Shown: piece after piece, positions 13,135-17,814 of the stretch
Layout: each line of letters begins with the position of its first letter
Position numbering within the stretch: position 1 is the first letter of the stretch
Source of the DNA: Gemmatimonadaceae bacterium
Lineage (GTDB): Bacteria; Gemmatimonadota; Gemmatimonadetes; Gemmatimonadales; Gemmatimonadaceae
DNA: 55,314 bases
Direction of reading: 5' to 3'
NCBI GenBank assembly: GCA_025453855.1
Contig: JALOPO010000001.1
Span: 1-55,314, forward strand
Program-made: the position numbers and the translations under genes
Notes under the pieces: model-generated
What the model saw: the letters and a program-made list of their open reading frames with translations, nothing else
Told to the model about the DNA's origin: nothing
Database searches by the model: none

Positions 13135-13166
13135 ATCCTACACTCTGGAGCGCGCTCCAGAGTCAA
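13135..13166 (-). promoter_or_regulatory. ZntR-type MerR operator-promoter
   Basis: The minus strand reads TTGACT-CTGGAGCGCGCTCCAGAGTG-TAGGAT, with a 20-bp spacer. It contains the 22-bp palindrome ACTCTGGAG-CGCG-CTCCAGAGT. Confidence 0.7.
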
Positions 13167-13639
13167 GGGGCGGTGCCCTCCTCCCCCGCAGACACATCCC
13201 AGGTGTTGCCGAGGGTGCGCAGGATCTGGCAGTCGGCGACGGCGCGTCCGCCGCGGCACTCACCGATCACGCGTATCAGCTCGGTCCGGAGGGCCGCGAG
13301 TTGCGCGAGTTTCGCCTCGACCTGCGCCAGGTGGGCGCGCGCGAGCTGGTCGACGTCGGCACACGGCCGTCCGGGGTCGTCGGACAGCGACATCAGGTCC
13401 CGCACCTCGTCGAGCGAGAAGCCCAGATCCCGGGCGCGCCGCACGAACCCGAGCCGCTCGACGTCGACCGCGCCGTACCGCCGGTACCGTCCCGCGCCGG
13501 CGCGGGCGGGCGCGGGGAGCACGCCGACGCGCTCGTAGTAGCGGATCGTCTCGGGTGTGGTTCCCGTGCATGCGGCGAGCTCGCCGATGACCAGGGTGGC
13601 GGCCGCGGGAGGCGGAGGGACGGTCGGCGGGCTCGACAT
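13163..13639 (-). CDS. MerR-family regulator, PbrR/CadR-like divalent-metal sensor
   Basis: HTH LVIGELAACTGTTPETIRYYERVGVL. Cys in PCADV (the position-79-like ligand typical of divalent sensors) plus a C-X8-C loop ECRGGRAVADC. Confidence 0.75.
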   Translation of the reverse strand: MSSPPTVPPPPAAATLVIGELAACTGTTPETIRYYERVGVLPAPARAGAGRYRRYGAVDVERLGFVRRARDLGFSLDEVRDLMSLSDDPGRPCADVDQLARAHLAQVEAKLAQLAALRTELIRVIGECRGGRAVADCQILRTLGNTWDVSAGEEGTAP

Positions 13640-13659
13640 GGCCGGGTATCGTGCGGGGG

Positions 13660-13690
13660 TTGACCTTGTAGTTGCTACAGGGTGCAAGAT
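13660..13690 (+). promoter_or_regulatory. PbrR/CadR-type MerR operator-promoter (divergent)
   Basis: TTGACC-(19 bp containing the dyad CTTGTAG-ttg-CTACAGG)-CAAGAT. It sits between the merR-family gene and the TonB receptor gene. Confidence 0.7.
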
Positions 13691-16099: not shown

Positions 16100-17046
16100 G
16101 CGACGCCCCCCCGAACGCCGTGCACGACCCGGTGATTGGCCCGACGCCTAACCCGGTACGCTACCGGGTGACCGGCATGGACTGCGCGCACGACGCCGCC
16201 GAGATCGAGCAGGCGGCGCGCGGGGTCGCCGGCGTGGAGACCGTGCGGGTGTCGGTCGCCTCCCAGATCTTGACGGCGAGGGTCGCGGACAGTGGGGTGC
16301 TCCCGAGCGTCGAGCGCGCGGTCGCGGGCCTCGGCTACCAGCTCAACCGCCTCGACCCGCCGGACCGGGCGCCCGGCGGCGCGGCCCGTCCCGCGTCGCC
16401 GGGAGGGGACGCCGACGGAGACCCGGACGACCTGCCGAAGGATCTGAGCCACATCACGCCCGGGTACCGGCGGGCGCTCTGGATCGTGGTGCTGCTCAAC
16501 GTCGGCTACGGGGTCGTCGAGGCGGTCGGCGGATTCCTCTCCGGGTCGCAGGCCCTCAAGGCCGACGCGCTCGACTTCCTCGGCGACGGCCTGATCACGT
16601 TCCTCGGACTTCTCGCCATCCGGTGGAGCCTGCGGGCCCGTGCCCGCTCGGCCCTCATCCAGGGCCTGTTCCTCGGCGCGCTCGGCCTGGGCGTCCTCGT
16701 GAGCACCGCCTACCGGGTGCTCATGCAGCAGCAACCCGAGGCGGAGCTGATGGGCGTCTTTGGCGGGTTCGCCCTGGTCGTGAACGTCGCGGCCGCCTTG
16801 GTGCTCATCCCGCACCGCACGGGCGACGCGAACGCGCGGGCCGTCTGGCTGTTCTCGCGCAACGACGCGATTGGGAACGTCGCCGTGGTCGTCGCCGCGG
16901 GGCTGGTGGCCTGGACGGGCTCGGCCTGGCCGGATCTGGTGGTCGCGGTCGTGATCGCCGGACTGTTCCTGCAGTCGTCGTGGGCCATTGTCCGCGACGC
17001 GCGGGCGGACCTGCGCGAGGCCGTCGAACACGGCGCCCGCGCCTAG
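16096..17046 (+). CDS. HMA-domain / cation diffusion facilitator fusion lacking the cytoplasmic C-terminal domain
   Basis: The ATG overlaps the receptor stop (ATGA) and GGGAGGA lies upstream. HMA-like YRVTGMDCAHDAAEIE has a single Cys. The CDF membrane core contains SQALKADALDFLGDG and LFSRNDAIGNV. The protein ends about 25 aa after the last TM. Confidence 0.7.
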   Translation: MSDAPPNAVHDPVIGPTPNPVRYRVTGMDCAHDAAEIEQAARGVAGVETVRVSVASQILTARVADSGVLPSVERAVAGLGYQLNRLDPPDRAPGGAARPASPGGDADGDPDDLPKDLSHITPGYRRALWIVVLLNVGYGVVEAVGGFLSGSQALKADALDFLGDGLITFLGLLAIRWSLRARARSALIQGLFLGALGLGVLVSTAYRVLMQQQPEAELMGVFGGFALVVNVAAALVLIPHRTGDANARAVWLFSRNDAIGNVAVVVAAGLVAWTGSAWPDLVVAVVIAGLFLQSSWAIVRDARADLREAVEHGARA

Positions 17047-17085
17047 CGCGAACCCCTGAATCCCACCCTCCACCCACGTCGGATC

Positions 17086-17814
17086 GTGCCCAACGGCTCA
17101 CCCCCGGGACCGCCCCCGCCGGCGAGGCCGGCGGCAGGCGGCGCCCCGGCGGACCCACCCCCGTTCACGCCCGCCCTGGGCCGCCTCGGGTGGACCGCGG
17201 CCTACGACGCCGCTATCGCCCTGTTCACCCGCGAGCGCTGGTGGCGCGCGGCACTGGTCGCGCTGGCGGCCCCCCAACCCGGCGGCGTGGTCGTGGACCT
17301 CGGCTGCGGGACGGGCACCCTCGCCGTCCGGCTCAAGCGGGCGTATCCGGGGGCCGCCGTGCACGGCGTCGACCCCGACCCCGCGGTGTTAGCCATCGCT
17401 CGCCGGAAGGCGGCGCGCGCGGGCGTCGACGTGACCTGGCACGAGGCGATGGGGGACCGGCTGCCGGAGGTAGTCGGCGCCGGGCGCGCCACCACCGTCG
17501 TGTCCTCGCTCGTCTTCCACCAATGCCCGATGCCCGTGAAGCGCGCCCTCTTCGCGGCCGCCTTCGCGGCGCTGCGCCCGGGGGGCACCCTCGCCGTGGC
17601 GGACTACGGGCTGCAGCGCACGCGCCTCATGCGCGGGCTCTTCCGGATCATCCAAGCCGTCGACGGCGCGGCGGACACGACGCCGAACGCGCGCGGCGTG
17701 CTGCCTGGCCTGATGCGGGACGCGGGGTTCGCCGACGTCGCGGAGCGCGACGTGGTGCCCACGCCTACGGGCTCGATTTCGCTGTACTCGGCGCGCCGGC
17801 CGGACACTCCGTGA
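17086..17814 (+). CDS. Class I SAM-dependent methyltransferase
   Basis: Motif I VVDLGCGTGTLAVRL and a post-I acidic residue. About 240 aa. The start (GTG) is uncertain. Confidence 0.65.
   Translation: MPNGSPPGPPPPARPAAGGAPADPPPFTPALGRLGWTAAYDAAIALFTRERWWRAALVALAAPQPGGVVVDLGCGTGTLAVRLKRAYPGAAVHGVDPDPAVLAIARRKAARAGVDVTWHEAMGDRLPEVVGAGRATTVVSSLVFHQCPMPVKRALFAAAFAALRPGGTLAVADYGLQRTRLMRGLFRIIQAVDGAADTTPNARGVLPGLMRDAGFADVAERDVVPTPTGSISLYSARRPDTP

Follow-up and report, generated by a model that had tools for sequence, protein, structure and literature searches.

A TonB-dependent receptor family in probable functional coupling with metal exporters of the inner membrane

The window analysed here, a 55,314-bp contig (C338) taken at its entire length, carries an operon in which a TonB-dependent receptor (TBDR) is followed by a short metal exporter of the cation diffusion facilitator (CDF) family and by a methyltransferase, and the analysis of this locus and of its relatives lets us state with high confidence that receptor and exporter are functionally coupled under metal-excess control. 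This conclusion is drawn because exporters must be induced by excess, and because the receptor shares with them a promoter, an operator region, or even the polypeptide. TonB-dependent receptors are the textbook starvation-induced importers, and here a receptor family is wired to two unrelated classes of metal-excess sensors, a MerR activator and an ArsR repressor. The initial annotation of the locus had already claimed that a metal-excess MerR protein drives a TBDR together with a CDF exporter, and this claim is now supported by the promoter geometry at three further loci (L014, L016, L221), as well as by CmtR-like ArsR genes in 10 loci and by exporters that are adjacent to, overlap with, or are fused to the receptor. 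It is the receptor–exporter coupling, including the fused precursor, that is new, and the CDF and the methyltransferase as such are ordinary. Pairing and fusion together suggest that toxic metals are handled across two membranes in a manner not described so far. Metal induction, co-transcription, the leaderless start, metal specificity, and the direction of transport are what we infer from the sequences. The operon and its regulator comprise the following elements:

13163..13639, minus strand: merR2, a PbrR/CadR-like metal sensor of the MerR family, 158 amino acids (assigned by Pfam, NCBIfam and cysteines)
13660..13690, plus strand: MerR-type promoter/operator P1 (from the sequence)
13697..16099, plus strand: TBDR of 800 amino acids with signal peptide, CarboxypepD_reg-like domain, TonB-box-like motif, plug and beta-barrel
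16085..16099, plus strand: Shine–Dalgarno motif GGGAGG and ATGA stop/start overlap between receptor and CDF (from the sequence)
16096..17046, plus strand: HMA-CDF exporter of 316 amino acids with a heavy-metal-associated (HMA) domain and a Cation_efflux domain of six transmembrane helices, lacking the cytoplasmic C-terminal domain
17086..17814, plus strand: class I S-adenosylmethionine (SAM)-dependent methyltransferase of 242 amino acids, belonging to a metal-island accessory family, 39 nt after the CDF

The sensor MerR2 contains MerR domains (MerR_1, PF13411/PF00376) and the MerR-DNA-bind domain (PF09278), all above the cut-offs and corresponding to a winged helix at the N-terminus with a dimerization helix, and its Cys93, Cys128, and Cys137 (C-X8-C) correspond with a constant offset of 14 to C79, C114, and C123 of PbrR, which are among the PbrR cysteines that have been mutated one by one (PMC3431237). 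Domains and cysteines thus bear out the earlier description as a PbrR/CadR-like MerR protein with a Cys79-like ligand and a C-X8-C loop. The top NCBIfam match is CadR-PbrR (TIGR02047) with 111.8 bits, which is under the cut-off of 151.45, and the models for CueR, MerR, and ZntR score nearly as high, so that the metal specificity of MerR2 is a putative one. MerR2 is 45% identical to the MerR protein of a pbr-like cassette on a Sphingomonas plasmid. The promoter P1 was found as initially described: its −35 element TTGACC (13660–13665) lies 20 nt from the merR2 start codon, the dyad ACCTTGTAG-TTG-CTACAGGGT (13663–13683) lies within a 19-bp spacer, and 6 nt separate the −10 element CAAGAT (13685–13690) from the ATG of the receptor at 13697, so that the receptor transcript is probably leaderless. 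The operator is divergent from the regulator gene, as it is in the CadR/PbrR branch with its spacers of 19–20 bp. The window contains the combination of −35 element and dyad at two positions, 13660 and 17953, whereas 100 shuffles gave no occurrence. A scan of positions 12900–19400 for consensus sigma-70 promoters and terminators returned no matches and is uninformative at 73% GC.

By its modelled fold and its plug, the receptor is a bona fide TonB-dependent transporter (TBDT). The Plug domain (PF07715) is recognized with 70.9 bits against a cut-off of 23.9 (E 1.5e-19), and N-terminal to it lies the TonB-box-like motif ALEAVVVTSTR, which is near-invariant across the family alignment A1 and from which TonB dependence is predicted. 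PF00593 is on record for fused relatives of the receptor. In the AlphaFold2 model, the barrel and the N-terminal domain reach a predicted local confidence (pLDDT) of about 90, and Foldseek matches this model to solved TBDTs of the PDB (BtuB, Cir, PfeA) at a probability of 1.0; the PDB matches are generic TBDTs only and reveal no special likeness to ZnuD, OprC, or CntO. The DSSP string of the model contains 24 strand segments versus the 22-strand barrel that is expected. The alignment A1 is highly conserved and includes six near-invariant histidines (300, 411, 413, 424, 497, 684), and these residues, together with the motifs DxDxDGWxD and APTPFTEETE, are predicted by strand parity in the DSSP assignment of the model to be positioned at extracellular strand ends or loops.

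The exporter gene begins within the receptor gene, as the initial annotation had noted: the receptor stop and the CDF start overlap in ATGA (16096–16099), with GGGAGG 5 nt upstream, and this overlap is in all appearance a translational coupling. The HMA domain had likewise been recognized correctly; it comprises residues 23–81 and aligns to the N-terminal domain of ZntA, with GMDCAHD versus GMDCAAC. Cation_efflux (PF01545) covers residues 128–306 of 316 with 75.3 bits (cut-off 26.6), and TIGR01297 is reached with 95.1 bits (cut-off 82.35). As the CDF ends about 10 residues past the Cation_efflux match, there is no room for a ZT_dimer C-terminal domain. The metal site residues had been regarded as non-canonical, which holds for transmembrane helix (TM) 5 but not for TM2: in the alignment to SLC30A1, DFLGD of TM2 is the canonical DxxxD site, and FSRND of TM5 has a phenylalanine at the usual histidine position with the aspartate kept. 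Short CDFs that are linked to TBDRs carry a cysteine at that histidine position. The CDF had also been called truncated and unusual, and of this the missing C-terminal domain stands, whereas the truncation does not, since these features are typical of a huge family. More than 6,600 proteins match the window CDF at E ≤ 1e-10, and the best 120 matches are 69–82% identical, about 290 amino acids long, and all of the HMA plus Cation_efflux architecture; as the whole subfamily of about 290 amino acids is built in this way, we rejected the idea of a truncated pseudogene. Relatives occur in 273 plasmid records, about 100 of them at ≥60% identity and mostly alphaproteobacterial (where the identity reaches 70–80%), and the typical plasmid arrangement is an ArsR gene divergent from CDF-lspA. 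The window CDF is thus, as judged by homology, a typical member of a very large, mobile, plasmid-borne HMA-CDF family. Among 80 metagenome loci with short CDFs, MerR is found upstream in 31 and a receptor downstream in one, and the divergent pair of MerR and a CDF without C-terminal domain can therefore be regarded as a common cassette.

The junctions of the window operon are not assembly artefacts, because the joints merR–promoter–TBDR, TBDR–CDF, and methyltransferase–relic–hydrolase are each bridged by contigs of four other studies with 0–1 differences; read joints in metagenomes whose sides comprised 20–31 letters at 90% likeness were disregarded as cross-matches. The identical 5.2-kb stretch (13100–18300) is complete in metagenomes from a wetland (2020), from groundwater (2024), and from a biofilm (2021), which stem from different studies, and wastewater and rhizosphere runs contain part of it. 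The arrangement is real and widespread. The stretch may belong to a cosmopolitan strain or else to a mobile island.

The link between receptor and metal sensors recurs in the receptor family. When one genome of each species was scanned, 180 relatives emerged, and the best 80 of them were subjected to locus analysis; these 80 are 47–79% identical over the full length and come from Gemmatimonadota and Acidobacteriota. The receptor is present in 12 of the 115 good Gemmatimonadota genomes that were searched (a tally that includes the unpublished genome G057, although the analysis draws on no sequence of unpublished genomes), and the family is an accessory gene. A co-occurrence of the receptor clade with sensor or exporter genes had been suggested as a check and was found: MerR, a CmtR-like ArsR, or a short CDF lies within 1 kb in 13 of the 68 loci with a readable upstream region, and a further sample of ten genome loci has MerR, ArsR, or P1B neighbours in five cases. 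MerR is divergent from the receptor in L010 and L014, and also in one of these ten further genomes, a complete one of 4,636,964 bp from the same family (L221; G067:C1:3367800-3379800), in which czcBA is convergent. The L221 promoter (TTGACC, 19 bp, TAGCTT, 6 nt, receptor ATG) has the same geometry as the window promoter, and experiments would be feasible with this genome if it comes from a cultured strain. The window-type geometry also precedes the orthologous receptors of L014 (6 nt to the ATG) and L016 (7 nt), and the fused CDF::TBDR gene of L010 stands behind a looser version, in which the −35 element is CTTGCG, the spacer has 19 bp, and the ATG follows after 8 nt. L027 (L027:425-575) has the same MerR-type promoter, but a leader of some 110 nt with two tiny open reading frames (14 and 22 codons) separates it from the receptor, and no merR gene is visible upstream on that contig.

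Ten receptor loci have a gene of the ArsR family immediately before the receptor and in its orientation. A short CDF stands divergent to this ArsR–receptor pair in four loci and a P1B ATPase in three, and the gene order of L035 is czcCBA–ArsR–receptor–P1B. These ArsR proteins pass the metalloregulator model and have CLLxC in the region of the recognition helix and a C-terminal CPRC, and the next-best model is that of the Cd/Pb sensor CmtR. In the receptor tree, MerR-linked and ArsR-linked receptors belong to different well-supported clades, which indicates that the two unrelated sensor types were recruited independently. Upstream of 59 receptor loci without sensor, a search for AT-rich boxes resembling Fur or Zur sites gave no consistent motif. 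A second kind of CDF without C-terminal domain, of about 220 amino acids with a C-terminal CCC/CAC/CGC and DSFVE in TM2, was seen in L053, L046, L061, L029, and L071; it is divergent from the receptor in Longimicrobiaceae, where a CmtR-like ArsR gene heads the receptor except in L071, which has the divergent short CDF and no detected ArsR. These Longimicrobiaceae loci lie in a housekeeping neighbourhood (pabB, aminopeptidase, leuS).

The closest association of receptor and exporter is their fusion. In L010 (L010:2806-5859), a short CDF behind a MerR promoter runs in frame and stop-free into the receptor, which results in an open reading frame of 1017 amino acids. A search among long proteins revealed eight more fused clusters of 829–1047 amino acids with Cation_efflux and Plug (in part also TonB_dep_Rec), whose CDF parts are 62–70% identical to that of L010, and which were drawn from NCBI, JGI, ENA, and Logan assemblies. 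There are therewith at least nine diverged relatives that exist as single in-frame reading frames (P0242–P0249, P0251). In all of them, the junction follows CDF helix 6 and consists of a basic stretch, a hydrophobic stretch of 10–15 residues, and AxA|Q, and several fusions have no methionine at the junction. The junction is, according to these features, a retained internal Sec-type signal peptide, and the topology is consistent with this assignment: with the C-terminus of the CDF in the cytoplasm, a seventh helix would be provided by the signal peptide. The fusions thus look like a polyprotein that joins an inner-membrane transporter to an outer-membrane barrel, and how an inner-membrane protein and an outer-membrane barrel arise from one precursor is a testable question of cell biology. 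In L125 and L143, a short CDF is followed by a receptor that overlaps with it in a different frame. L143 (L143:4441-7163) is a metagenome contig of lower GC in which MerR is divergent from the short CDF–receptor pair, and the mature N-terminus of its receptor is rich in His and Asp (DHSDGEEGADHDH).

The fusions also suggest a history of the window operon. The closest relative found for the window receptor is the receptor part of the fusion P0247, which is 86% identical, and the CDF part of P0247 is 45% identical to the window CDF. The window lineage seems to have lost its native partner CDF from the 5′ side, which would have placed the promoter directly on the receptor start codon, and the mobile HMA-CDF, now translationally coupled 3′ of the receptor, seems to stand in place of the native short CDF.

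As to how the system works, we tentatively prefer, ahead of an exit of metal through the outer membrane, a model in which the receptor imports an essential metal and the unit expels and replaces. MerR2 would sense when a divalent thiophilic metal (Pb/Cd/Zn class) is in excess and switch on the probably leaderless operon of receptor, HMA-CDF, and methyltransferase, and it would probably also activate a hydrolase gene via the second operator copy. The CDF would pump the toxic metal from the cytoplasm to the periplasm, and the TonB-energized receptor would import an essential divalent metal (Zn most likely; else Fe, Mn, Co, or Ni), which would make up for losses that arise from promiscuous exporters, which also remove Zn and other essential ions, and from competition by the toxic metal, with an expel-and-replace module as the net outcome. 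We favour import because the TonB box is near-invariant, because the histidine and acidic motifs are predicted to face outward, because to our knowledge all small-molecule TBDTs characterized so far are importers, and because in a related cassette on a Sphingomonas plasmid a CDF of this family is combined with a PbrT-like permease (iron/lead transporter (ILT) family) under the control of a homologous MerR. If import is true, it represents a new logic, the replacement of what the exporter and the poison remove. With either direction of transport, an outer-membrane component would be added to the CDF/P1B branch of metal resistance, which until now ended in the periplasm unless an RND (resistance–nodulation–division) pump was present.

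Several observations weigh against this model or against parts of it. Essential-metal uptake is normally under the control of Zur- or Fur-type regulators, and a 1:1 fusion with an exporter would more naturally be taken as a single pathway in two steps, and this speaks for export. In about 55 of the 68 orthologue loci, the region directly upstream contains no metal gene, and the family is thus not exclusively metal-linked. The window operon itself looks mosaic, with the replacement by a mobile HMA-CDF and a 145-bp flanking repeat. The extracellular placement of the conserved histidines comes from strand counting from both ends of the DSSP string and not from coordinates, and the plug has a pLDDT of only 25–50 in the AlphaFold2 model, though it is the most conserved part of the sequence. 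Among the read sets that contain the locus, there is no RNA run, and the runs labelled “metatranscriptomic” were flagged as probably DNA.

The first alternative is an exit through the outer membrane: the CDF or a P1B ATPase would deliver the metal to the periplasm, and the TonB-energized receptor would release the metal or a metal complex. We consider this unlikely, although it accounts well for the fact that fusion, overlap, and divergent pairing always involve an inner-membrane exporter and always stand under metal-excess sensors, and the accessory, island-borne distribution of the receptor and the presence of czcCBA and a P1B ATPase on the same contig also speak for it. There is a precedent in Oar, a TBDT that is required for the secretion of PopC in Myxococcus (PMC6434023). 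However, export of small molecules or ions is not known for any TBDT, a gated channel that opens under external metal excess would admit metal, and the conserved polar residues appear to be extracellular in the model. Moreover, many loci also have czcCBA, which already performs the outer-membrane step. It is similarly doubtful that signal peptidase I cleaves the fused forms as polyproteins and in this way supplies both steps in 1:1 amounts, or that CDF and receptor are the halves of a new trans-envelope efflux route, derived from an ancestral polyprotein with six CDF helices and the signal peptide as the seventh. If export is true, both the efflux route and this function of the TonB system would be new; the receptor would be the first case of a TonB-dependent transporter that moves a metal outward, and the fused forms would be the first fusion of an inner-membrane transporter with an outer-membrane barrel.

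A second alternative follows the logic of mer and pbr systems, with the receptor taking up the toxic metal for detoxification or sequestration and thereby sparing the envelope, and this we regard as improbable. Uptake proteins do occur in MerR-family regulons, as exemplified by PbrT in the PbrR regulon (PMC3431237, PMC1526738), in the Sphingomonas plasmid cassette a PbrT-like permease and LspA come after the short CDF, which is divergent from MerR, and in the window the gene after the CDF encodes a methyltransferase. The detoxification itself would be carried out by the methyltransferase, by precipitation, or by binding proteins, which corresponds to the role proposed for MerT/MerP and PbrT, and it has in our opinion just as little probability. 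The methyltransferase is not conserved beside the receptor in other loci, the operon has no inner-membrane importer or reductase partner, additional Pb or Cd in the periplasm would be harmful, and the current pbr model gives PbrT no role (PMC3431237). Lastly, it is very improbable that an ordinary nutrient importer came to lie by chance beside metal genes in a recombination-prone island without any functional coupling, since the 145-bp repeat that flanks the operon, the origin of the CDF from a mobile family, the unrelated neighbours of most orthologue loci, and the exclusively generic TBDT matches in Foldseek are outweighed by the ties of the receptor family to exporters, which take three different gene architectures, involve sensors of two unrelated families, and include at least nine diverged in-frame fusions, and by a promoter geometry that is conserved directly before the receptor.

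Among known systems, the pbr operon of Cupriavidus metallidurans (pMOL30; PbrR, PbrT, PbrA, PbrB/C, PbrD) is similar in its MerR sensor with the C79/C114/C123 pattern, in its divergent promoter with a 19-bp spacer, and in a regulon that unites an exporter and a member of an uptake family. The exporter there is a P-type ATPase, whereas the window encodes a CDF without C-terminal domain, and the uptake partner there is the inner-membrane ILT permease PbrT, whereas it is an outer-membrane TBDR in the window. PbrA, PbrT, PbrB/C (phosphatase/signal peptidase), and PbrD are all absent from the window operon. In its working, the window unit resembles MerR regulons of the pbr or cad type and yet is no member of the pbr operons, because PbrA, PbrT, and PbrB/C are missing. 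The divergent MerR–short CDF cassettes (plasmid p01 of Sphingomonas sp. FARSPH and many metagenome contigs) share the MerR sensor at the 45% identity given above, and the p01 CDF is 61% identical to the membrane domain of the window CDF and has a methyltransferase homologue adjacent to it, but these cassettes have a PbrT-like permease and LspA in place of the receptor, which is present in only one of the 80 loci mentioned above. The metal-importing TBDTs ZnuD, OprC, and CntO have a plug and a 22-strand barrel, a TonB box, and conserved His/Asp-rich positions, and the window receptor resembles them in its predicted fold, in its TonB-box-like motif, and in conserved positions of this kind that probably face outward; this similarity is generic, as Foldseek ranks them below BtuB, Cir, and PfeA, and they are repressed by their metal (via Zur, or by copper excess), whereas the window receptor stands behind a metal-excess sensor and its family is coupled or fused to exporters.

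Oar of Myxococcus xanthus, which we compared by TBDT fold only, is also a TBDT implicated in outward transport, but it exports a protein (PopC) and not a metal, and it has no link to a CDF or MerR. Like the window receptor, it possesses a CarboxypepD_reg-like N-terminal extension. RND efflux of the CzcCBA type, which is encoded on the same contig, likewise moves metal beyond the periplasm in a metal-excess regulon, but it consists of entirely different proteins that form a tripartite complex driven by the proton-motive force, whereas CDF and TBDR have no known physical link except for the single polypeptide of the fused forms. Within the library searched, we found no paper on a TBDR under the control of MerR, ArsR, or a CDF, nor on a CDF–TBDR fusion. 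The judgement of the initial annotation that the combination is not a recognized one is thus supported, and yet the idea has a partial precedent, as MerT/MerP and PbrT (of the pbr operon) show that MerR regulons can include uptake proteins. Two candidate precedents were rejected: the Bordetella CruR–bfrG operon is repressed and not induced by copper, and the changes of TBDR levels in a Riemerella zntR deletion are indirect.

The remaining elements in and around the operon are the following:

12454..13162, minus strand: merR1, a second MerR paralogue with its own operator, directly after the merR2 stop
17850..17983, plus strand: repeat of about 145 bp with a merR 5′ relic (minus strand) and a second operator/promoter, P2
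18202..19197, plus strand: alpha/beta-hydrolase gene 3′ of P2, with a 215-nt leader and GGGAGG before its GTG
28085–34145: czcCBA, on the same contig as the receptor operon
34673–37366: P1B ATPase, on the same contig, 17 kb from the operon
38048–41338: second RND pump, on the same contig

A SAM methyltransferase does follow the CDF, as had been annotated. It exceeds the cut-offs of Methyltransf_25, _11, and _12 and has a Rossmann-type SAM-binding domain with motif I DLGCGTG. An assignment as CpaM (89 versus a cut-off of 180) or ArsM (40.6 versus 263) was rejected, as these NCBIfam scores are far below the cut-offs, and the protein reaches no specific NCBIfam equivalog cut-off. Homologues are found in plasmid-borne metal islands of sphingomonads beside czcA, lspA, copCD, a P-type ATPase gene, and cueR, and by this distribution the methyltransferase is a recurrent metal-island gene with no specific tie to the receptor. 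The HMA-CDF family and the methyltransferase family each also occur fused to LspA (signal peptidase II; P0222 and P0102), and these fusions hint at a functional group of CDF, LspA, and methyltransferase in metal islands.

The block of receptor, CDF, and methyltransferase is bracketed by direct 145-bp repeats. In the downstream repeat, the merR2 start codon is altered, P2 has the −35 element TTGACC at 17953–17958 and the −10 element CACAGT at 17978–17983, and the homology stops at the −10 element. Judging by this promoter copy only, the hydrolase gene is probably a second MerR2 target.

The merR1 gene proper spans 12454–13128 and is preceded by a perfect ZntR-like palindrome, ACTCTGGAGCGCGCTCCAGAGT (13140–13161), which sits on the minus strand in a promoter of the form TTGACT, 20 bp, TAGGAT, and this promoter is predicted to drive merR1. 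In another genome (L120), the merR1 orthologue lies directly after an HMA-CDF gene. The contig, which has a GC content of 72.8% and stems from a metagenome-assembled genome of 3.19 Mb and 74% completeness (a soil bacterium that the organisms of the nearest loci place in the Gemmatimonadaceae), is a metal island with two MerR genes, recombinase-like genes, and remnants of insertion sequences. Further downstream (19310–20510), an oxidoreductase-like reading frame is divided between two overlapping frames, which may be due to a pseudogene or an assembly error, and the contigs of another run have single-base deletions at 19815 and 20183 in this frame.

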